Made by a program: the position numbers and the translations under genes
Shown: piece by piece, positions 13,100 through 41,592 of the stretch
How positions within the stretch are numbered: position 1 is the stretch's first letter
Layout: each line of letters begins with the position of its first letter
Source of the DNA: Escherichia coli
GTDB taxonomy: Bacteria; Pseudomonadota; Gammaproteobacteria; Enterobacterales; Enterobacteriaceae
Assembly (NCBI RefSeq): GCF_024502345.1
Contig: NZ_JALDNN010000001.1
Direction: 5' to 3' (one strand)
DNA length: 64,000 nucleotides
The notes under the pieces: generated by a model
What the model saw: the letters and a program-made list of their open reading frames with translations, nothing else
Database searches by the model: none
Told to the model about the DNA's origin: nothing

Positions 13100-13295
13100 A
13101 TGCCGGATACGGCCTACGGTTCGGCACAAACCTGTAGGCATGATAAGACGCGTCAAGCGTCGCATCAGGCATTGTGCGCCAACTGCCGGATGCGGCGTGA
13201 ACGCCTTATCCGGCCTACGGTTCGGCACAAACCTGTAGGCATGATAAGACGCGACAAGCGTCGCATCAGGCATTATGCGCCGACTGCCGGATGCT
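13100..13295. repeat. BIME cluster (several REP units)
   Basis: Repeated GCCGGATGCGGCGTGAACGCCTTATCCGGCCTACG and CGTCGCATCAGGCAT units. Confidence 0.7.
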
Positions 13296-20535: not shown

Positions 20536-21117
20536 CTACGGCAGTGCTGGCCATTCAATATCCTGTGCAGTTGACGTATCAACACGGTTCAGCAATACCC
20601 GATACTTTTTCCATGCTTCCAGCAACGAGATTTCTTCCTCCGTTGCAATTTCCAGATCTGCAGCATCCTGAAGCGGCGCAATATGCTCACTGGCTACCTG
20701 CATCAGGTTGTTTTTTGTTTCTTCCGCCTCCCGGATCCGGAACAGTTTTTCTGCTTCCGTATCCTTCACCCAGGCTGTGCCGTTCCACTTCTGAAACTCC
20801 CCTTCCGGGGATAACCAAGTGACATTTTCCGGTAATGGGCCAAGTTCAGAAATAAATAACGCGTCGCCGGAAGCCACGTCATAGACGGTTTTACCCCGAT
20901 GGTCTTCAACGAGATGCCACGATGCCTCATCACTGTTGAAAACAGCCACAAAGCCAGCCGGAATATCTGGCGGTGCAATATCGGTACTGTTTGCTGGCAG
21001 ACCTGTATGAGGTGGAATATATGCATCACCTTCACCAATAAATTCATTAGTTCCGGCCAGCAGATTATAAATTGTTATGGTCCGTGGTTGTTCACTCATT
21101 CTGAAATCCATGTTCAC
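20536..21117 (-). CDS. tfa: Tail fibre assembly protein (Tfa)
   Basis: 193-aa ORF with Tfa-like sequence, immediately downstream of the tail-fibre-like ORF. Confidence 0.8.
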
Positions 21118-25360: not shown

Positions 25361-25592
25361 TAAGCAAAAAAGCTCCCGAAGGAGCCTTCATTTTCACTTT
25401 CTTAAATCTAACGACAGACGGCTAACATTTAAGTATTGTGAAATATTATCAAATGTAATCATCATTGATTTACAAAAGATACATTTTGCCCCGAAAGGAT
25501 TCCTGTCAGAAACATCAAAAGATGATGTTCTATACTGAGAACCATGGCAACACGGGCATCTAAAGTGAATATGGTTTGTAATATTTTCTACC

Positions 25593-25805
25593 TCAAAGTG
25601 CCACTACATGAACAGCCGCGGGGCCTTTAGGTCCGTTCTCAATACCAAATTCGACTTGCTGATTCTCAGTTAACGTTTTGAAATCGTTGCTCTGAATAGC
25701 TGAGAAATGGACAAACACATCTTTGCTACCATCTTTCGGCGTGATGAAACCAAAACCTTTTTCAGGGTTAAACCATTTCACTAAACCAGTCATTTTGTTA
25801 GACAT
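25593..25805 (-). CDS. cspI: Cold-shock protein (CspA family), prophage copy
   Basis: [38 protein letters not shown]... RNP1/RNP2 motifs; the paralog name is a guess from Qin gene order. Confidence 0.8.
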
Positions 25806-26174
25806 CATTATTACCTTTTGAAGAAGTGAGCCCTTGGGCAGAATGGTCCGAAAAAAAATATCAGAGAGAAAAACCAACAAGGAAATCTCAAGAGGTACAA
25901 ATAATAAAATTATAACAATGACTGCTTCAGATAATTTTGTAACAAACCAGAACACCATTAACGCATGATTAACCAACCATAGCAAGGATTACTTTTGTAA
26001 AGAAAAACACACGAATGAAACAATAGCTTTATTTATTAATAAAACGTGTCATTCTGTCTAATGACCTTTTATCTTACCCTTAAGATTTCAAGGATTTTGA
26101 CTCATGGAAGAGTCCTTTTTATTTAAATTTCACATTCAGCGCTAAAAATAATCCGATTTAATGTTAATCTACAT

Positions 26175-27196
<1,022 letters not shown>

Positions 27197-27301
27197 GGAT
27201 ATTTATCAGGATTTATCGGTTTCTGAACCCTGGATATGTTTATCTGTCCCGGCCTGTTGAATCAGGCGGGGAAAAGGTAAAGACAATCAAGAGGATTATT
27301 T

Positions 27302-27574
27302 ATGGACAATAACACCATTTCTCTACAGGAGTTGCTCGACTGCATTTCAAAGCTTCGGGATGATGTAAATGCCCTCACTGTTGCATTTTCATATTTGGCC
27401 TTATCAATTCCCAGAGAACAAATGCAACCAACACTGGCATCGCTCCTGCTTGAATCACGCAACCCCAAATGGTCCCAGGAACAACAAAATTCTTTCAAGT
27501 GGCTGGCGGCATTACTGGAAGAAAAATATGCTGGTAAAATTACCATTTCGGTGGAGTCTTCAGAGAATCAGTAA
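27302..27574 (+). CDS. Hypothetical 90-aa protein on the strand opposite to the lysis cassette
   Basis: ORF fills the gap between endolysin and ydfR-like gene; hydrophilic, helical-looking; no homolog recalled. Confidence 0.25.
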   Translation: MDNNTISLQELLDCISKLRDDVNALTVAFSYLALSIPREQMQPTLASLLLESRNPKWSQEQQNSFKWLAALLEEKYAGKITISVESSENQ

Positions 27575-27884
27575 TTCTTCCTGGTAGCTTTCCTTTGTAG
27601 GTTATCCACACATTCTGCGCCTCTAAAATTACGGGGCGCTTTTCCGGCGACTGCTCATCCCCTTCACATAACCCGGCTGCAACTTCCAGGAAGACCTGTC
27701 TGATGCTCCTTCTGGCTGCTGCCTCATAAAACTCCAGCGCGGCACCTTCAACACGGTCCAGCGAGATGTCCAGGTCAAAAATTTCACCGTCAAAGCGTTT
27801 TTTGTCCCTTAATGCTACAGTTACCGCAACTTTATTCTCAAAATTGCGGATCCCTTTCACAATCAGTTCATAGTTTTGTGTCAT
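27540..27884 (-). CDS. YdfR-like prophage protein (DUF1327)
   Basis: Sits between holin and endolysin as ydfR does in Qin. Confidence 0.6.
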   Translation of the reverse strand: MTQNYELIVKGIRNFENKVAVTVALRDKKRFDGEIFDLDISLDRVEGAALEFYEAAARRSIRQVFLEVAAGLCEGDEQSPEKRPVILEAQNVWITYKGKLPGRITDSLKTPPKW

Positions 27885-27888
27885 TGAA

Positions 27889-28104
27889 TTACTCTCCCCG
27901 TGCAACCTTACGCTTGTCTTCTTTAATCTTGAAATAAAGGTTTGTCAGGTACGTCAGCAAGCCAAATACCAGACTACCCAGCACACCGATTGCAGCCCAC
28001 TGTGACGGAGTTACTTTATCGAGTAACTGCAATGCCCAGAAACCAGCATTACCAGCCGATGTGCCATAGGCGATACCTGTTGTTAACTTATCCATTGATT
28101 TCAT
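27889..28104 (-). CDS. Holin (phage 21 S / EssQ-like)
   Basis: 71 aa with TM segments WALQLL...[15 protein letters not shown] and a charged C-terminus. Confidence 0.8.
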
Positions 28105-28322
28105 ATCCTCACCCCGATGTACACAGATGGTGCAATATGTTTGAAAAGATCGGAGTCTATGGGGTAGTTTTTATAGCAAACGTTGTTCTCAACGGCGCTA
28201 AAAAACAGACACATTAAAAATGTGGGTAATTATTTTAAAAGAAAATCATATATTAAATAATAATACGAGATATGTTTTCATATTTAGTGTACTGTATACG
28301 GCCATTTATACAGGAAAAGCCT

Positions 28323-28493
28323 ATGTCAGAACGTAAAGACTCAAAATCACGCCGTAATTATCTCGTTAAATGTTCCTGCCCAAACTGCACCCAAGAGTCA
28401 GAACACAGTTTTTCAAGAGTACAAAAAGGTGCCCTTTTGATCTGCCCTCATTGCAACAAAGTATTCCAGACAAATCTTAAAGCTGTAGCTTGA
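28323..28493 (+). CDS. Small zinc-ribbon protein (CxxC...CxxC)
   Basis: MSERKDSKSRRNYLVKCSCPNCTQESEHSFSRVQKGALLICPHCNKVF; AGGAAA RBS. Confidence 0.4.
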   Translation: MSERKDSKSRRNYLVKCSCPNCTQESEHSFSRVQKGALLICPHCNKVFQTNLKAVA

Positions 28494-28552
28494 TTGATTT
28501 TATTCGTAACAAGTATTTTTTATATTTTAATAACATATTTAAAGCAGATAAT

Positions 28553-28577
28553 AAAAAACCCGCCTGAGCGGGTTTAA
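28553..28577. terminator. Hairpin ACCCGC-CTGA-GCGGGT with flanking A/T runs
   Basis: Perfect 6-bp stem with T-run on the minus strand. Confidence 0.5.
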
Positions 28578-28856
28578 TATTGTGGTACTTTTTGTGGGAG
28601 TCATCCACTTACGCACTTTGTTTTGCTATGCCAGCAGTTAGCTTCTGCTGTAAAACTATTCATGCAGCAAACCTGCACTTCACCACAATGGTTAGCATAC
28701 TTTTCCTGATTAAGTTATTGCCAAATATGCTGGCCATTGTTTCATGTATTGGACCTCCTTACTCTTTATTAAAGAGATCCAATATTCACCACTCTGTCTG
28801 TATCTCCACTCAGGCATCAGCCTTCTTCGTTATCGTATACAGACAAACTATGAATT

Positions 28857-29072
28857 TTAATCAGTAATTATGACATTTGCTGCTGCAGGACCTTTAGCAC
28901 CACTCTCTACAGAGAAGGTAACCTTTTGACCTTCAAATAAGATTCGATAATTATCATTCTGAATCGCAGAAAAATGCACAAACACATCTTTACTACCATC
29001 AACAGGAGAAATAAAGCCAAAACCTTTATCAGCGTTAAACCATTTTACTAAACCAGTCATTTTATTTGACAT
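28857..29072 (-). CDS. cspB: Cold-shock protein (CspB-like)
   Basis: [38 protein letters not shown]... Confidence 0.85.
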
Positions 29073-29372
29073 TCTACATTCCTTAACTTGAGCCTTTCGG
29101 CATAAATGGCTTGTATAACAGAAACGACTTCGTACTTAATTGGAGAGACTCAAAGAAGGAATAAGTGAATAACACCTGAAATGAGAACTGCTTTAGTAAA
29201 CTACTTCGTATATCGTCTGTTCTTCAAACCGACGCAATCATTAACGCATAGTTGAACATATGAAGCAATGTTTATTTTAGACATCCAGCCATCTTCAACC
29301 CCATCAAAAAACTATAGCTTTCTTCAGGAACGTGTGTATAGTGCGCCAAGTTATCAGTATTAAGGAATTTTT

Positions 29373-29585
29373 TTGTCCCGTAAAATGACAGGAATTCTCA
29401 AAACCTTTGACGGCAAAAGCGGCAAAGGTCTTATAACCCCATCCGATGGTCGTATCGATGTCCAGCTTCATGTTTCAGCGCTCAATCTCCGCGATGCAGA
29501 AGAAATTACCACCGGATTACGCGTGGAATTTTGCCGGATAAATGGTCTGCGTGGACCATCAGCTGCCAATGTTTACCTTTCATGA
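29373..29585 (+). CDS. cspF: Cold-shock-like protein (CspF/CspH-like)
   Basis: [39 protein letters not shown]... Confidence 0.8.
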
Positions 29586-29880
29586 GCTATATTAAAGCTT
29601 TAACTTCAAGCCCCATCGAATCAAACATGGAGAGTTTTCATGAATAAACCCGTCTGTCTTGATGACTGGTTGATTGGCTTTAAAAGCTTATGCTGTACTT
29701 TGACCTTAATAGCTCTGCTAATAATGTAATAAGCAGACTCATTGTATCTATGGACATTGTACTGGAAGAAAACATTTTAAACATCAGGCAAAAAACAAAG
29801 TCACCCGATAAATAATAAGTAAACTAACATGAATCCCGTAATGAGATTCAACATCTCTATTACCCTATTTAAAGCACAAA

Positions 29881-29905
29881 AACCCGCTCATCAGCGGGTT
29901 TTCTA
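29881..29905. terminator. Candidate late-operon terminator (tR'-like) downstream of Q
   Basis: CCCGCT-CATC-AGCGGG stem with T-runs on both strands, ~110 bp past the Q stop. Confidence 0.5.
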
Positions 29906-30007
29906 CTTTTTCTTAACTTCGGGTATACAAAGCCCATCGTTGAAAAAATTTTATCCATATTTTTTGAAAAATGCAAGCATCACGTCGCCATCTTCGGCGA
30001 AAATCAC

Positions 30008-30760
30008 TTATCTCGTCACCTTTCTCAATTGTGCTTCAGCGTAAGATTCCTCCTGCCAGCACTTTGTAACCAGTTTATCAATGACATTTGCATATCCTTT
30101 ATACCACTGATAATCACTCAGGTCCGGTACCAGCTTCTGGACATGATGCCGCGCCAGTGTGGTTGGTAAACGACTAAACCGTTTTCCATTGCAACGCCCA
30201 CAAATCTTATAAACAGGTGTGCCATGAAGCCGGGTCCTTTTTTCATCCAAGACAATACCTTTACCCTTACACCCTCTGCACGCTGTGCTGACTTCTCCCT
30301 TACCATGGCAATGCTGACATAGTTCCTTCACCCACTCTTCTTTGATAACAGATTCCCCGCTTCTGGAGTGTTTCACCACTTCGCGCAATACATTATGAAA
30401 TCCAGTACCAGCACAATGCTCACAACGAGCCTTACTTGCCGCAGACCTGGAATAATCAGCAAAGGCAAAATTCACAAGGTAAGGAATAATCTGTAGCCGG
30501 GTTTCTTCACTCAATTTATTCAATGTCGGGTTATCCAGTGCCATCGCGTAATTGAGCAGACCTTCAATCGCAAACTGAGGATCCTGAACACCAACTTTTG
30601 CCAGGAATAAGGCAAACCCAAGCGGTGCTTTCGACTGCACCATCCCCTGCGCAGCCATCACATCCGTAATCGTTAAACCACCAGAGCCTGTCGCCGGTGC
30701 GTCATCACTCAATTTTGGAGATTTTGGGGAGTAATATTTTGGTAAGGCTTCAAGGTTCAT
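30008..30760 (-). CDS. Late-gene antiterminator Q (QuuQ/phage 82 Q-like)
   Basis: 250 aa with Cys clusters CEHCAGTG, CQHCHGKG, CRGCKGKG, CGRCNG. Confidence 0.8.
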   Translation of the reverse strand: MNLEALPKYYSPKSPKLSDDAPATGSGGLTITDVMAAQGMVQSKAPLGFALFLAKVGVQDPQFAIEGLLNYAMALDNPTLNKLSEETRLQIIPYLVNFAFADYSRSAASKARCEHCAGTGFHNVLREVVKHSRSGESVIKEEWVKELCQHCHGKGEVSTACRGCKGKGIVLDEKRTRLHGTPVYKICGRCNGKRFSRLPTTLARHHVQKLVPDLSDYQWYKGYANVIDKLVTKCWQEESYAEAQLRKVTR

Positions 30761-30820
30761 GCTCGTTCTCCACTTACGCCAGTACGCCTATTGCCAGCGC
30801 ACGATCGATAAAACGAAATA

Positions 30821-31171
30821 TCAGCTCCAGCTGGGAGCCATACTTCTCTTCAAATGCCACGGTAAACGCTGGTTAATATCGGCATTGTCCACATCCTCGA
30901 CGTCAGGAAGAGACACAAAGACGCCATTTGCAGACTGCGCCACAGCGTCAGCAATGAAGTGAGTGCCACCAGCACGTTGTAAAATCATTGCCCATCCCAG
31001 CGGGAAAATCTGATCGCCATCGGCACGAAGGCGGTTAAATAATGCGTTCTCTGTTACATCCAGCCACTCAGCAGCTTCAGCGTACCCCACCGGCAACGCC
31101 GCGATAGTTTTTCTGACAGCTTTCACGTACCACTCAGGCTGTTTTTCCACTTTCCAGTGATGATTACCCAC
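30821..31171 (-). CDS. Phage regulatory protein, CII-like; possibly truncated
   Basis: 116-aa ORF overlapping the Cro-like gene stop and ending 60 bp before Q; no replication genes in between. Confidence 0.4.
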   Translation of the reverse strand: MGNHHWKVEKQPEWYVKAVRKTIAALPVGYAEAAEWLDVTENALFNRLRADGDQIFPLGWAMILQRAGGTHFIADAVAQSANGVFVSLPDVEDVDNADINQRLPWHLKRSMAPSWS

Positions 31172-31424
31172 GGCTTACCTCCTGTTCCTGTGGTTTAAAC
31201 CCATTCTGGTTTTGGCTAGATTGAAAACGTGCCGGATAAAGAATCTGCATTTCGCTGATTTCACCCTTAAAAAAATTGGCCAGACGTTCTGCAAGATCGA
31301 TAGATGGAATTTGTTCCAGTCTTTCAATACGACTCAGCGTCGCTGGATTGACCTGAACGCCAGCAGCAACATGCTGCAAAGTAAATCCGTGCGCCTTACG
31401 CACATTCCGTAATGGTGATTGCAT
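31164..31424 (-). CDS. Cro/antirepressor-like HTH protein
   Basis: HTH GFTLQHVAAGVQVNPATLSRIE; divergent from the cI-like repressor. Confidence 0.6.
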   Translation of the reverse strand: MQSPLRNVRKAHGFTLQHVAAGVQVNPATLSRIERLEQIPSIDLAERLANFFKGEISEMQILYPARFQSSQNQNGFKPQEQEVSRG

Positions 31425-31521
31425 ATGACCTCCACATATTGCGTGATGAGCATATTATTTCACGCAAATATTTTGCGCAAGTTGATTTGCTTAACGCGCA
31501 ATAAAGAAATGTAATAAACGC

Positions 31522-32214
31522 ATGAACATAGGAAACCGAGTCAGACAACTTCGCCAAGCGAAGAACATGAAAATCGCCGATCTCGCTGAAGCAATAGGAG
31601 TGGATGCGGCGAATATCTCACGCCTGGAAACAGGTAAGCAGAAACAATTCACTGAACAAGCCCTGAGTAATATTGCCAGGAGCTTAGGTGTTGATATTGC
31701 TGATCTCTTTACCTCAGACTTCAAAAGTAATACTGTATGTAAAAACAGTGTTAGTGAGGATGTTGCGCAGGTGAAGGATGTATTCCGTATTGAAATGCTG
31801 GATGTCAGTGCCAGTGCGGGAAATGGCCTTATCCAGGGCGGTGATGTCATTGATGTGATTCATGCCATTGAATACAGAACTGATAATGCTGTATCGATGT
31901 TTGGCGGACGGCCAGCCAATCACATTAAAGTTATCAACGTTCGTGGGGACAGTATGTGTCCAACCATTGAGCCAGGAGATCTCATCTTCGTTGATGTCAG
32001 TATCAATCAGTTTGATGGAGATGGTATCTATGTATTTGGTTTTGATGATAAAATTTATGTCAAACGACTGCAAATGATACCTGACAAACTACTGGTGATT
32101 TCTGATAACCAGATTTACCGTGAATGGGGAATTACCAGCGAAAATGAACACCGGTTTATGGTCTTTGGAAAGGTCTTAATCAGCCAGTCACAAACCCTTA
32201 AGCGACACAATTAA
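31522..32214 (+). CDS. CI-like repressor (HTH plus S24 LexA-type peptidase domain)
   Basis: N-terminal HTH IADLAEAIGVDAANISRLE; C-terminal GDSMCPTIEPGDLIFVD...VKRL Ser/Lys dyad. Confidence 0.85.
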   Translation: MNIGNRVRQLRQAKNMKIADLAEAIGVDAANISRLETGKQKQFTEQALSNIARSLGVDIADLFTSDFKSNTVCKNSVSEDVAQVKDVFRIEMLDVSASAGNGLIQGGDVIDVIHAIEYRTDNAVSMFGGRPANHIKVINVRGDSMCPTIEPGDLIFVDVSINQFDGDGIYVFGFDDKIYVKRLQMIPDKLLVISDNQIYREWGITSENEHRFMVFGKVLISQSQTLKRHN

Positions 32215-32234
32215 CCCTTACCTCCTCATCAATT

Positions 32235-32256
32235 AGCCACCCAAAGGTGGCTTTTC
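32235..32256 (+). terminator. Rho-independent terminator after cI
   Basis: AGCCACC-CAAA-GGTGGCT stem followed by TTTT. Confidence 0.65.
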
Positions 32257-32649
32257 ATTACCCTTTAAATTGCATATCTCGCAACAAAAACACTTGCATA
32301 ATGCGCAACTTCATTTTATCTTTCTTTCCAGACAAACAAACAAGGTACTAACAAAATTTGGTTGTAACACGGCGTATGGCACATGCGTCGTTAGCGGTCT
32401 GGGGACGTTAAAGGGGACAATCCACTCCTTGCTCGGGCAAACAAACCAGGTAGCCGGAATGTGCAAGTCAATGATGATGCTGATAAGACGCCTAACCAGC
32501 GTGGCGATTCGGTTTGACGCCTGGGAAGAGACCAGGGTGCAACGATGAGGGCATTTATGGAGCCGCGACAAAGTGTGGTGCCGTAACTGGCTAAGTGCTC
32601 TCAGCGTTGTGGTAATCCGCGAAATGGCGCGGCGGTAAGTATGGCGGGG

Positions 32650-33255
32650 TTACTCTTTCCCCGTTGAGGACACCGGATTGTCAGGTTGACCATACGCCTG
32701 AGTGACAACAACCAGACGATTCAGGGCAGTATCATCCGCCTTTTCCGGTAACAGCCCATGCAGGTATACAAGTCCATCCCAGCGGCTGTTTTTTGGAATT
32801 GGCAGCATCGGCGCTACATAGGCCTGAAAAGCCTGGCCTGTACGTTTAGCTGCCACATGAAAGAGACGGTCAAAGTTGGTAGTGACCAATCGAAGGGCAC
32901 CCTCGCGGCTACGGGCTAAACGTAACAGCGCCGCCTGAGTATCAATAGCGCCCCTACGACGGAACTTTGGCTTAAGGGCTTTTTCCAACGCGCGTCGGAC
33001 GGCTATACGCTGCCCTGGTAAGCGCCGTTCCAGCAAATCTAATGTGCCGTCAAATTGCCCACGCTCGAAAACCTCACGCTCAATTTCTGAAAGTGTTGTT
33101 CCGTTCCTCTGGTAAATTAGTTCTACCAACCCTTTGAAACCAGGTAAACCAGCAGGGTAGGAAATGCCTGCTCCACAGAAGAACACAACGCGCCCTTCCT
33201 CGTGCGCCTGCAAAAGCTCATCAGGAATATCAGGGCCGTTGGTAATGAATTGCAT
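32650..33255 (-). CDS. SIR2-like domain protein (short, 201 aa)
   Basis: VVFFCGAGISYPAGLPGFKGL (Rossmann GAG), VTTNFDRLF, LVYLHGLL match SIR2_2-type motifs as I recall them. Confidence 0.55.
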   Translation of the reverse strand: MQFITNGPDIPDELLQAHEEGRVVFFCGAGISYPAGLPGFKGLVELIYQRNGTTLSEIEREVFERGQFDGTLDLLERRLPGQRIAVRRALEKALKPKFRRRGAIDTQAALLRLARSREGALRLVTTNFDRLFHVAAKRTGQAFQAYVAPMLPIPKNSRWDGLVYLHGLLPEKADDTALNRLVVVTQAYGQPDNPVSSTGKE

Positions 33256-33437
33256 TCCTTTTCCTCCTATCCAATGTGCACGTTCATTCGAGTAAATGAA
33301 GGCAAGGGGTTACATCTTATTATACCGACCGTGCAAATCCGGCTTCCTAGCAAGCTACTTTACTTGCCAACTCATAATGTCCGAACTCCGAACAAAGCGG
33401 ACTGCTAGATTTGATTGCGTTCTAGCTACGCAAAATA

Positions 33438-34661
33438 TCATTTCGAGCCTAAACGAGTACAAGTAACAATCGATTCAACTCTCTCCCACCATGCCTGGTA
33501 GGCTTTACGCTGTTCTTCTAGATAATCACTCTTGTCATAAACTTGCCATACACCTGGCAGTTTATGACCGAGCATTATTTCAGCAATATGAGGCGCAGTA
33601 AGATCAGAAAAGTTTGTTCGTGCTGTTCGTCTCAAATCATGAAGAGACCAATGAGGAAATTGATACCCCAAACGCCGCCATGCGTACTGCATTAAATTGT
33701 AAGGCAGCGACTGCAATGATGTCCGACCAACTGGTTCCCTGCTTCCTTCCTTAGTAAAAAGCATATCGGAACCGTTGTTCATAGAGATAACGTATTTTAT
33801 AAGCTCTTCAACCGGTTCAATAATGGGCCGCTTTAGCGGTTCGCCTGTTATATCCCCTGTCTTATGTCGTTCTGGTGGTACAGTCCATATTTTATTAATG
33901 AAATCAAAATCGTCCACCTTGGCAGTAATTAGCTCTGAACTACGGCAACCAAAATGCAGCAATAGTTTAATGAAGGCCCGGTATTTAGGAACCATTCGAG
34001 AACCATCGATCGCAGCATAAAGGATTTTAATTTCATCATGTGTCAGAAACCGTTTCTTCTGACCTTTACGGATATCCATATCTTTACCCGTGATATCCGA
34101 CAGCGGGCGAGTTTCAATGAGCTTTCTCTTATACGCCCAGACATGGGCCTGCTTTGCGTTAATTAGCAATCGGTCTGCTATTGCTGGAGTCTTAGTGCTA
34201 AGAGGCTCCAGGACTTCTAACCAATCATGCAATGTAGCTGCATCGTGAGGGATATTCCCGATTTTAGAGAACAGGTGCAGCTCAAACGAGCGGAGTATCT
34301 GTTCAGAACCTTTTTTATTTTTTACACAATATGCTTCATACCAAGCACGGATCACAGATTCTACCGTCATGGCTTCAGTAGCTTTACGTTTTTCTGCCAG
34401 CTTGACCAATCGTGGATTGCGGTTTGACTCGAGTTCACCACGAAGACGGATAACTTCTTCTCTGGCCTCTTTTAGTCCAGTTGCCGGGTAAGTTCCGATA
34501 TCAAGACGCTCACCTTTCCCCGCCCACTGATAACGATATTGGAACACTACGCGACCTTTCGGTGATACTCTAACAGACAGACCATCACGATCGGATTTAA
34601 CCAAAACCTTATCACGTTCCTTTCCAAGGACTGAACGCAACCACGCATCAGACAGCGCCAT
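33438..34661 (-). CDS. int: Tyrosine integrase, P4-type
   Basis: 407 aa; N-terminal DUF4102-like arm-binding region (MALSDAWLRSVLGK...GLSVRVSPKGRVVFQYRYQ), C-terminal catalytic region with HDLRRT...LGHK. Confidence 0.9.
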   Translation of the reverse strand: MALSDAWLRSVLGKERDKVLVKSDRDGLSVRVSPKGRVVFQYRYQWAGKGERLDIGTYPATGLKEAREEVIRLRGELESNRNPRLVKLAEKRKATEAMTVESVIRAWYEAYCVKNKKGSEQILRSFELHLFSKIGNIPHDAATLHDWLEVLEPLSTKTPAIADRLLINAKQAHVWAYKRKLIETRPLSDITGKDMDIRKGQKKRFLTHDEIKILYAAIDGSRMVPKYRAFIKLLLHFGCRSSELITAKVDDFDFINKIWTVPPERHKTGDITGEPLKRPIIEPVEELIKYVISMNNGSDMLFTKEGSREPVGRTSLQSLPYNLMQYAWRRLGYQFPHWSLHDLRRTARTNFSDLTAPHIAEIMLGHKLPGVWQVYDKSDYLEEQRKAYQAWWERVESIVTCTRLGSK

Positions 34662-34669
34662 TACTCACC

Positions 34670-34729
34670 TTGTACAAATAACAAAAAACCTCTGCTGTTT
34701 TGTACATTATGTACAAGCACATGTACAGA
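34670..34729. promoter_or_regulatory. Cluster of four (A/T)TGTACA(A/G) repeats beside int, candidate arm-type sites
   Basis: TTGTACAAA, TTGTACATT, ATGTACAAG, ATGTACAGA within 60 bp of the int start. Confidence 0.45.
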
Positions 34730-36669: not shown

Positions 36670-37701
36670 ATGTCTGCATTTACCCCGGCAAGTGAAGTCT
36701 TGCTGCGTCACAGTGATGATTTCGAACAAAGCCGTATTCTGTTTGCCGGAGACTTACAGGATGACCTGCCCGCGCGTTTAGATACCGCGGCCAGCCGTGC
36801 TCATACCCAGCAATTCCACCACTGGCAGGTGTTAAGCCGCCAGATGGGGGATAACGCCCGTTTTAGTCTGGTCGCCACGGCGGATGACGTCGCAGATTGC
36901 GATACGCTGATTTACTACTGGCCGAAGAACAAACCGGAAGCCCAGTTCCAGTTGATGAATTTACTTTCTCTGCTGCCGGTGGGGACGGATATTTTTGTCG
37001 TTGGCGAGAACCGCAGCGGCGTGCGCAGCGCCGAGCAGATGCTGGCAGATTATGCGCCGTTGAATAAAGTCGACAGCGCTCGTCGCTGTGGACTCTATTT
37101 TGGTCGTCTGGAAAAACAGCCAGTATTTGATGCGGATAAATTCTGGGGCGAATACAGCGTCGATGGCCTGACGGTCAAAACGCTGCCTGGCGTGTTTAGC
37201 CGCGACGGTCTGGATGTCGGTAGCCAGTTGCTGCTCTCGACGTTAACTCCGCACACGAAAGGTAAAGTGCTGGATGTCGGCTGTGGCGCGGGTGTGCTTT
37301 CAGTTGCCTTTGCGCGCCATTCGCCGAAAATTCGTCTCACCTTGTGCGATGTCTCTGCCCCGGCGGTAGAAGCCAGCCGCGCAACACTTGCGGCCAACGG
37401 TGTTGAAGGTGAAATCTTTGCCAGCAACGTCTTTTCCGAGGTGAAAGGTCGTTTTGATATGATCATCTCCAACCCGCCGTTCCACGATGGGATGCAAACC
37501 AGCCTGGATGCGGCGCAAACGCTGATTCGCGGCGCGGTGCGTCATCTTAATAGCGGCGGCGAGCTGCGAATTGTAGCGAACGCCTTCCTGCCTTACCCGG
37601 ACGTGCTGGATGAGACATTTGGCTTCCATGAAGTTATCGCGCAAACCGGGCGCTTCAAGGTGTATCGCGCCATTATGACCCGCCAGGCGAAGAAAGGTTA
37701 A
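36670..37701 (+). CDS. rsmC: 16S rRNA m2G1207 methyltransferase
   Basis: 343 aa; SAM-binding [11 protein letters not shown] and NPPFH motif. Confidence 0.92.
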
Positions 37702-37709
37702 TTATCTCG

Positions 37710-37850
<141 letters not shown>

Positions 37851-37968
37851 TCCTGATGGACATTTTTCCAGCAATTACACATCAGGCGATAATTAACTAT
37901 TGACGAAAAGCTGAAAACCACTAGAATGCGCCTCCGTGGTAGCAATTCTTTTTAAGAATTGATGGTAT

Positions 37969-38055
37969 GCGAAGGTGGCGGAATTGGTAGACGCGCTAGC
38001 TTCAGGTGTTAGTGTCCTTACGGACGTGGGGGTTCAAGTCCCCCCCCTCGCACCA
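37969..38055 (+). tRNA. leuQ: tRNA-Leu (anticodon CAG), copy 1
   Basis: GCGAAGGTGGCGGAATTGGTAGACGCGCTAGCTTCAGGTG...CTCGCACCA with long variable arm and CCA end; paralog name by position. Confidence 0.9.
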
Positions 38056-38083
38056 AAAACCACGTTGATATTGCTCGCACTGG

Positions 38084-38170
38084 GCGAAGGTGGCGGAATT
38101 GGTAGACGCGCTAGCTTCAGGTGTTAGTGTTCTTACGGACGTGGGGGTTCAAGTCCCCCCCCTCGCACCA
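38084..38170 (+). tRNA. leuP: tRNA-Leu (CAG), copy 2, with one variant base in the variable arm
   Basis: Same as copy 1 except GTGTTCTTACGG instead of GTGTCCTTACGG. Confidence 0.85.
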
Positions 38171-38204
38171 AACGAGGCGATATCAAAAAAAGTAAGATGA
38201 CTGT

Positions 38205-38291
38205 GCGAAGGTGGCGGAATTGGTAGACGCGCTAGCTTCAGGTGTTAGTGTCCTTACGGACGTGGGGGTTCAAGTCCCCCCCCTCGCACCA
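38205..38291 (+). tRNA. leuV: tRNA-Leu (CAG), copy 3
   Basis: Identical to copy 1. Confidence 0.9.
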
Positions 38292-38329
38292 ATTATCTTT
38301 ACTTCCTTTCTTGTTTCTTCCCTGTTTTG

Positions 38330-38566
38330 TCATCCCTGATTCAAATTCATTATCATCAGCATGATGCCAGCAATAAGCGCCAGGCACGATGGTAGCAAAA
38401 TGTAATGCCGCAACTGTTTGTGATACAGCATCACCGGCGTCAATACTAATCCCATCAGAATTACAATCCGCCACTGATCCGGCGATAAATCCGCATACAT
38501 CAGCCCTGCAATCAGCAATCCCGGCAGCAACACTCCCCAGCCACTGCCCAGCGTACGTTGCAACAT
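38330..38566 (-). CDS. yjjZ: Small membrane protein YjjZ
   Basis: 78 aa from MLQRTLGSGWGVLLPGLLIAGLMY... Confidence 0.7.
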   Translation of the reverse strand: MLQRTLGSGWGVLLPGLLIAGLMYADLSPDQWRIVILMGLVLTPVMLYHKQLRHYILLPSCLALIAGIMLMIMNLNQG

Positions 38567-40371: not shown

Positions 40372-41592
40372 TGTAGATTCAATTGGTCAACGCAACAGTT
40401 ATGTGAAAACATGGGGTTGCGGAGGTTTTTTGAATGAGACGAACATTTACAGCAGAGGAAAAAGCCTCTGTTTTTGAACTATGGAAGAACGGAACAGGCT
40501 TCAGTGAAATAGCGAATATCCTGGGTTCAAAACCCGGAACGATCTTCACTATGTTAAGGGATACTGGCGGCATAAAACCCCATGAGCGTAAGCGGGCTGT
40601 AGCTCACCTGACACTGTCTGAGCGCGAGGAGATACGAGCTGGTTTGTCAGCCAAAATGAGCATTCGTGCGATAGCTACTGCGCTGAATCGCAGTCCTTCG
40701 ACGATCTCACGTGAAGTTCAGCGTAATCGGGGCAGACGCTATTACAAAGCTGTTGATGCTAATAACCGAGCCAACAGAATGGCGAAAAGGCCAAAACCGT
40801 GCTTACTGGATCAAAATTTACCATTGCGAAAGCTTGTTCTGGAAAAGCTGGAGATGAAATGGTCTCCAGAGCAAATATCAGGATGGTTAAGGCGAACAAA
40901 ACCACGTCAAAAAACGCTGCGAATATCACCTGAGACAATTTATAAAACGCTGTACTTTCGTAGCCGTGAAGCGCTACACCACCTGAATATACAGCATCTG
41001 CGACGGTCGCATAGCCTTCGCCATGGCAGGCGTCATACCCGCAAAGGCGAAAGAGGTACGATTAACATAGTGAACGGAACACCAATTCACGAACGTTCCC
41101 GAAATATCGATAACAGACGCTCTCTGGGGCATTGGGAGGGCGATTTAGTCTCAGGTACAAAAAACTCTCATATAGCCACACTTGTAGACCGAAAATCACG
41201 TTATACGATCATCCTTAGACTCAGGGGCAAAGATTCTGTCTCAGTAAATCAGGCTCTTACCGACAAATTCCTGAGTTTACCGTCAGAACTCAGAAAATCA
41301 CTGACATGGGACAGAGGAATGGAACTGGCCAGACATCTAGAATTTACTGTCAGCACCGGCGTTAAAGTTTACTTCTGCGATCCTCAGAGTCCTTGGCAGC
41401 GGGGAACAAATGAGAACACAAATGGGCTAATTCGGCAGTACTTTCCTAAAAAGACATGTCTTGCCCAATATACTCAACATGAACTAGATCTGGTTGCTGC
41501 TCAGCTAAACAACAGACCGAGAAAGACACTGAAGTTCAAAACACCGAAAGAGATAATTGAAAGGGGTGTTGCATTGACAGATTGAATCTACA
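40372..41592 (+). mobile_element. IS30 insertion sequence (1221 bp)
   Basis: Terminal inverted repeats TGTAGATTCAATTGGTCAACGCAACAG / ...GTTGCATTGACAGATTGAATCTACA; candidate 2-bp target duplication GC. Confidence 0.9.
40434..41585 (+). CDS. insI: IS30 transposase
   Basis: 383 aa [31 protein letters not shown]...; length and sequence match IS30 Tnp. Confidence 0.92.

Follow-up and report, generated by a model that had tools for sequence, protein, structure and literature searches.

Three tandem tRNA-Leu(CAG) genes lie within the 64,000-nucleotide (64-kb) stretch of Escherichia coli DNA analyzed here (the window), and the middle gene has a T at one position where its two neighbors have a C. This raises the question of whether the T is an error, a new mutation, or the ordinary state of this gene. 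A first-pass annotation of the sequence had taken the K-12 tandem copies to be identical and had offered two explanations for the difference, a paralog-specific substitution or an error.

Each of the three copies was predicted by ARAGORN as an 87-nt gene on the + strand, with the anticodon cag at position 35 in a 7-nt loop, and each scored 48.5 bits against Rfam RF00005 (gathering score, 29), with model positions 1-71 covered (Table 1). When the copies were aligned, 86 of the 87 columns were equal. The sole mismatch, at column 48 (C, T, and C in copies 1, 2, and 3, respectively), falls at position 38131 within GTGT[T/C]CTTACGG, so the first-pass annotation was correct that the middle copy differs by one base of the variable arm. 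The covariance-model match, the CAG anticodon, a predicted variable-arm stem-loop, and the leucine identity elements present in the sequence (a D-loop GG, and an A immediately 5' of the encoded CCA) place these genes among the class II tRNA-Leu.

Table 1. Positions of the tRNA-Leu(CAG) genes, the variant base, and the flanking elements in the window
Feature	Position	Strand	Basis or remark
rsmC, upstream synteny marker, 343-aa ORF	36670-37701	+	Annotation at the matching position in Ec1120 and K-12
Putative operon promoter, TTGACG-16-TAGAAT	37900-37927	+	Consensus scan, 10/12 matches
GC-rich stretch GCGCCTCC directly after the promoter	37928-37935	+	Sequence
5' leader hairpin, CAATTC, loop TTTTTAA, GAATTG (6 bp)	37943-37961	+	Sequence reading
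tRNA-Leu(CAG) copy 1, leuQ ortholog, C at base 48	37969-38055	+	ARAGORN, Rfam; identical to K-12 leuQ
Spacer 1, 28 nt	38056-38083	+	Identical to K-12; non-Escherichia mean 88% identity to the window
tRNA-Leu(CAG) copy 2, leuP ortholog, T/U48 isodecoder	38084-38170	+	ARAGORN, Rfam; identical to K-12 leuP
Variant base, T in copy 2, C in copies 1 and 3	38131	+	Alignments
Spacer 2, 34 nt	38171-38204	+	Identical to K-12; non-Escherichia mean 84% identity to the window
tRNA-Leu(CAG) copy 3, leuV ortholog, C at base 48	38205-38291	+	ARAGORN, Rfam, alignment with K-12
C/T-rich trailer, hairpin-free, region of the literature Rho-dependent terminator	38292-38351	+	Scan, PMC2190699
yjjZ (DUF1435), downstream flank	38330-38566	-	Transferred from Ec1120 annotation

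Each copy contains an acceptor-stem A5·C79 mismatch (e.g. 37973, 38047), which is a non-standard pair according to Rfam. Across the order, pair 5-79 is G·U in Morganellaceae, and in Lelliottia-type arrays it is A-U in the third copy and C·C in the first two. Each tRNA also contains a run of 8 Cs (38040-38047, 38155-38162, and 38276-38283). Leu(CAG) copies of 85-89 nt are found in several public assemblies and may be genuine variation or may reflect misassembly of the homopolymer; in strain 300709 (copy 1) and in K. michiganensis, the length change falls in the 8-C run.

Upstream of the genes, both hexamers of the putative promoter and the GCGCCTCCGTGGT stretch were invariant in the printed part of a 45-row alignment, which consists of the window and 44 arrays and covers many genera. 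From its position and conservation, we infer that this element is the operon promoter. In other genera, the leader hairpin reads CGATAC...GTATCG, with both of the changed pairs compensated, which suggests that it is a conserved structure in the precursor leader. The leuQPV operon has been reported to yield one precursor, from which RNase P releases the individual tRNAs independently of RNase E, and to end at an unstructured Rho-dependent terminator downstream of leuV (PMC2190699). The window is consistent with this published processing, as its spacers start with CCAAAAACC and CCAAACGAG as in that report, and the AAAACC that follows the CCA end at the start of spacer 1 is as described there for RNase P-dependent processing. 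A scan of the + strand found no intrinsic terminator after copy 3. Between rsmC and the promoter, REP-like palindromic elements are present at 37700-37850; this region contains a 21-nt direct repeat, CCTACAAAACCTGCACGTTAG, at 37750, which occurs again with one mismatch at 37828.

In K-12 MG1655 (NC_000913.3), leuQ, leuP, and leuV are encoded on the minus strand, flanked by rsmC and yjjZ/fhuF, and contain C, T, and C, respectively, at base 48; the three genes are base-for-base the same as window copies 1, 2, and 3. The premise that the tandem copies are identical in K-12 was therefore mistaken, and the proposal of a paralog-specific difference stands. The K-12 leuT gene has C at base 48. The promoter, leader, and both spacers of the window are identical to those of K-12, and a few flanking bases differ, indicating that the window is derived from another E. 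coli strain; strain Ec1120 has 100% identity to the window over 37850-38400. The middle copy is identified as the leuP isodecoder by its K-12 leuP sequence, including T48, by its place in the middle of a three-gene array, and by the K-12 spacers around it.

The single-base difference of LeuP has already been stated in the literature, and a tRNA-seq preprint keeps (leuP) separate from the identical set (leuQ leuT leuV). A figure legend in PMC2190699 refers to leucine tRNA genes with "identical nucleotide sequences," which shows that a misconception of identical copies is in circulation. The T at base 48 of copy 2 is the known, normal leuP allele and not a new mutation. This base is correct and needs no fixing, and, being what the reference genome has in a well-known gene, it deserves little weight in a genome scan. 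In tRNA-seq mapping and in variant calling, leuP deserves a reference of its own, apart from leuQ/leuT/leuV, and at leuP base 48 it is a call of C that would be the unusual one.

Alleles were counted within E. coli by comparing 99-nt queries with 5426 complete genomes. The count is an indirect one that relies on identity bands, as a single mismatch in a query of this length moves a match below the 99% band. Queries anchored on spacer 2 showed no seeding across alleles and gave the cleaner counts; the tRNA(T) plus spacer 2 was present in 4848 of the 5426 genomes (∼89%), and the tRNA(C) plus spacer 2 was present in 138 (∼2.5%). Queries with the spacer-1 anchor cross-matched every copy, and ∼453 partial hits were subtracted from their counts. 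With this anchor, the exact T 99-mer was found in 4526 of the 5426 genomes, and the C 99-mer had a top-band match in 565, of which ∼453 were partial matches to the tRNA only, leaving ∼112 true C alleles. A longer query of 551 nt (37850-38400) matched 5425 of the 5426 genomes, always over a region annotated as tRNA-Leu (x3) and yjjZ. These data show that T is the majority state at leuP base 48 in E. coli.

The above counts bear on two explanations that would make the T an anomaly of this sequence. The idea that the T arose recently, in this strain or lineage alone, has nothing in its favor except that the window is not from K-12, and it is extremely improbable because T is the E. coli majority state and is common to E. 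albertii, Salmonella arizonae, Citrobacter, Klebsiella, Raoultella, Kosakonia, and others. A sequencing or assembly error that concealed a true C, with three identical copies, would agree with the premise of the first-pass annotation and with the figure legend cited above; moreover, tandem repeats are easily misassembled, copies of 85-89 nt are found in other assemblies, and the missing base of strain 300709 sits in an 8-C run. However, K-12 MG1655 has this T as well, as do dozens of other species at the same array position, and the difference is stated in the literature. The occurrence of T with the same spacer 2 in 4848 of 5426 independent complete assemblies effectively excludes an assembly error. 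We conclude that the window is very unlikely to contain an assembly error here and that an error of either kind has almost no chance of accounting for the T; this half of the original proposal falls away.

Not all E. coli genomes have the same number of genes in the leuQPV array. A spacer-1-anchored match was absent from ∼453 of the 5426 complete genomes, O157:H7 included. In the three examples examined (O157:H7 Z1769, EcPF16, and strain 1613), a single C-type tRNA-Leu lies between rsmC and yjjZ, which corresponds to a collapsed array. One E. coli strain has a two-copy C-T array, and the array of strain 300709 is C-C-C.

The occurrence of the T form in other species was surveyed with an exact 31-mer containing the T, using one genome per species. 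At least 120 loci were retrieved, all of them from Enterobacterales or unclassified MAGs; tRNAs were annotated in every locus listed, and each Leu(CAG) copy was classified. Only loci that contain the T 31-mer are found in this way, so the survey is biased toward T. Among the loci listed, the order was C-T-C in 34 of 44 three-copy arrays, from at least 12 genera (Escherichia, Salmonella arizonae, Citrobacter, Klebsiella, Raoultella, Kosakonia, Enterobacter, Pseudocitrobacter, Phytobacter, Pseudenterobacter, Intestinirhabdus, and Entomohabitans). Seven of these 44 arrays were C-C-T (Trabulsiella, a Pluralibacter MAG, and Lelliottia-type arrays), one was T-T-C (Kosakonia arachidis), and two were C-T-?. 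E. albertii also carries the T form in the middle copy.

Most of the two-copy arrays listed from Morganellaceae contained one copy of each form. The order was T-C in Xenorhabdus and Photorhabdus, with the second copy of one Xenorhabdus array unclassified, and C-T in Morganella and Proteus, with one Morganella array being T-T. At argX-hisR-leuT-proM, leuT was T-type in 39 of the 39 loci listed, a count that is fixed by the T-based retrieval; the genera listed with a T-type leuT were Enterobacter, Citrobacter, Klebsiella, Raoultella, Pantoea, Yokenella, Morganella, and Xenorhabdus, together with E. whittamii. In completely sequenced Enterobacter cloacae and E. hormaechei genomes, and in the type-strain assembly of K. 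pneumoniae (a 5.3-Mb scaffold), the T 31-mer matched at leuT only, and the arrays of these genomes probably lack the T motif.

The non-Escherichia arrays had mean identities to the window of 98-99% in the tRNAs, 84-88% in the spacers, 87% in the leader, and 53% in the 60-nt trailer. Further base changes were seen in some arrays. The leuP ortholog of the E. albertii type strain has a second change, C24T, by which the D-stem pair G12-C24 would become G·U, and C49T, found in Lelliottia-type arrays, is another G·U-type variant.

The presence of the T form in so wide a set of genera indicates that it is an old state that did not arise in E. coli leuP. For E. coli leuT, it is more likely that the C is derived, having switched from T. 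Calling the difference a substitution in copy 2, as the first-pass annotation had done, probably gives it the wrong polarity, because the T form is shared across Enterobacterales and E. coli leuT apparently changed from T to C.

The same distribution could also have been produced by recurrent, independent C-to-T changes at a tolerated, mutable site instead of by shared ancestry. A change from G-C to G·U is the easiest tolerated change in a stem, these genes contain further G·U-type variants, for example C24T in the middle copy of E. albertii and C49T in arrays of the Lelliottia type, and the T is found in other copies in Kosakonia arachidis (T-T-C) and in Trabulsiella and the Pluralibacter MAG (C-C-T). 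Recurrent mutation would be expected to place the T at random, yet in 34 of the 44 arrays listed it is in the middle copy only. In addition, the flanking spacers are homologous across genera, which argues that the whole arrangement was inherited. We consider recurrent mutation a highly improbable source of the pattern.

The 15-nt variable region, which in the Rfam match is inserted between the anticodon arm and the T arm, comprises bases 45-59 in the linear count. A stem of 4 bp (G46-C57, U47-A56, C48-G55, and C49-G54) with a 4-nt loop, UUAC, is predicted for both variants, and the variant base lies in the third pair of this stem, where C48-G55 is changed to a U48·G55 wobble. By our own assignment, made without a tool result, the Sprinzl number of this base would be e12. 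The first-pass annotation had named a fold prediction of this stem as a check on the difference, and when the prediction was run, the U form kept the hairpin. The fold of the isolated hairpin was equal in both forms, with free energies of −5.2 (C) and −2.3 (U) kcal/mol and with 48-55 pair probabilities of 1.0 (C) and 0.97 (U). With the full cloverleaf imposed, the values were −30.0 (C) and −27.1 (U) kcal/mol. The variable arm with U48 is therefore predicted to persist, although about 2.9 kcal/mol weaker. In unconstrained minimum-energy folds of the full 87 nt, the C copy was not a cloverleaf, and the U copy had a non-canonical variable region; such an outcome is usual for unmodified tRNA sequences and is uninformative on the variant.

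Published work also addresses the part played by this arm in charging. E. coli LeuRS relies on A73 and on tertiary elements of the D and T loops, including G18G19 of the D loop, and leucylation of E. coli tRNALeu is uncorrelated with the sequence or folding of the variable arm, such that armless variants stay active (PMC9976931). In the publications consulted, we found no data on expression, charging, or fitness for the U form in particular.

Based on the results of the above comparisons, we are confident that the window contains the leuQ-leuP-leuV operon of a non-K-12 E. coli and that its middle gene is an ordinary leuP allele, one that is most likely nearly neutral. According to this interpretation, leuP would be a second tRNA-Leu(CAG) isodecoder in which one C-G pair of the variable arm is replaced by a U·G wobble. 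Its tRNA would fold, be freed from the tricistronic precursor by RNase P, be charged by LeuRS, and decode CUG as its neighbors do. Such normal function is expected because the stem is retained with a G·U pair and because neither the sequence nor the fold of the variable arm is used by E. coli LeuRS; with the stem kept and the synthetase indifferent to the arm, the C/U difference is most likely nearly neutral.

The difference itself would be an old one between paralogs that was inherited vertically and that persists through strong purifying selection on the whole operon and infrequent homogenization between copies. Occasionally, the U form would be erased, with no obvious harm, by gene conversion to C or by unequal crossing-over that collapses the array. 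It is our inference that the failure of collapsed arrays to persist over long times could be due to selection on gene dosage and not on the U. One finding counts against strict neutrality, as C-T-C is kept in most of the arrays listed although the trailer is near saturation; a strictly neutral base 48 in the middle copy would be expected to drift or undergo conversion between such genera. The conservation exceeds what strict neutrality would give and is compatible with weak selection on either the U form or the arrangement.

A stronger form of selection would keep U48 as a functionally specialized isodecoder, at both leuP and leuT in most genera, and would keep the C-T-C order too. The U·G pair might then alter the stability or turnover of the tRNA, the production of fragments, or the interaction with a partner other than LeuRS. 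The C-T-C order in 34 of the 44 three-copy arrays listed, from at least 12 genera and despite 53% trailer identity, would fit this proposal, as would the coexistence of both forms in Morganellaceae arrays and the U-type state of every non-E. coli leuT locus listed, although the last is fixed by retrieval. Conversion and collapse within E. coli have also not erased the pattern over the long term. However, there are successful lineages without the leuP form, such as O157:H7 with its one C-type gene; E. coli leuT has C where most other genera have T; and the arrays of Enterobacter cloacae and E. hormaechei are probably without the T motif. LeuRS ignores the variable arm, and vertical inheritance, strong general constraint, and rare conversion would also explain a pattern that comes from a T-biased survey. 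Selection for a specialized U48 isodecoder thus seems unlikely to us, and we give a similarly low chance to the view that the C-G and U·G forms are an ancient isodecoder pair kept by selection, with the U in a role unrelated to aminoacylation identity.

With leuP read as an ordinary and probably near-neutral allele, this locus offers a small, testable case of how near-identical tandem tRNA genes escape homogenization. One paralog-specific wobble pair is held at the same array position in many genera, and E. coli arrays are seen to convert or collapse.

Other features were observed elsewhere in the window. Relative to Ec1120, it contains a 1.2-kb insertion at 40372-41592, adjoining bglJ/yjjQ; a 383-aa ORF within it (40434-41585, + strand) has HTH_38 and rve integrase-core domains, and the insertion is most likely an insertion sequence of the IS30 family. 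Prophage-like DNA is found at about 25500-34700, adjoining yjjG. It encodes a 407-aa tyrosine integrase (33438-34661, − strand) with Arm-DNA-bind_3 and Phage_integrase domains and contains two Rfam cspA-thermoregulator hits on the − strand (25566-25963 and 28794-29233); the corresponding site in Ec1120 is occupied by a lambdoid prophage that is related but not the same and carries cspB and cspF. On the − strand, Rfam models also exceeded their gathering scores for naRNA4 (REP-derived), twice, and for IS009, once, at 24-102, 13137-13215, and 20570-20768.

Among known genes, the closest counterpart of window copy 2 is K-12 leuP, to which it is equal at 87 of 87 bases, T48 included. The two loci also share the position between leuQ and leuV, the spacers, the promoter, and the neighbors rsmC and yjjZ/fhuF. 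The C48 isodecoder of E. coli, tRNA-Leu1, is encoded by leuQ, leuV, and leuT, which are grouped as Leu1 in tRNA studies; leuQ and leuV share the operon of leuP. These genes have the anticodon in common with copy 2 and match it at 86 of 87 bases, and their variable-arm hairpin is predicted to be 2.9 kcal/mol more stable than that of the leuP form. The U48-type leuT genes listed from Enterobacteriaceae, and one from Pantoea, encode a mature tRNA identical to window copy 2, whereas those of Morganellaceae have the same U·G pairing within the variable arm but also A5G and C79T and, in some cases, G7A and C77T. Unlike leuP, the U48-type leuT lies in the argX-hisR-leuT-proM cluster, where the E. coli gene is of the C form.
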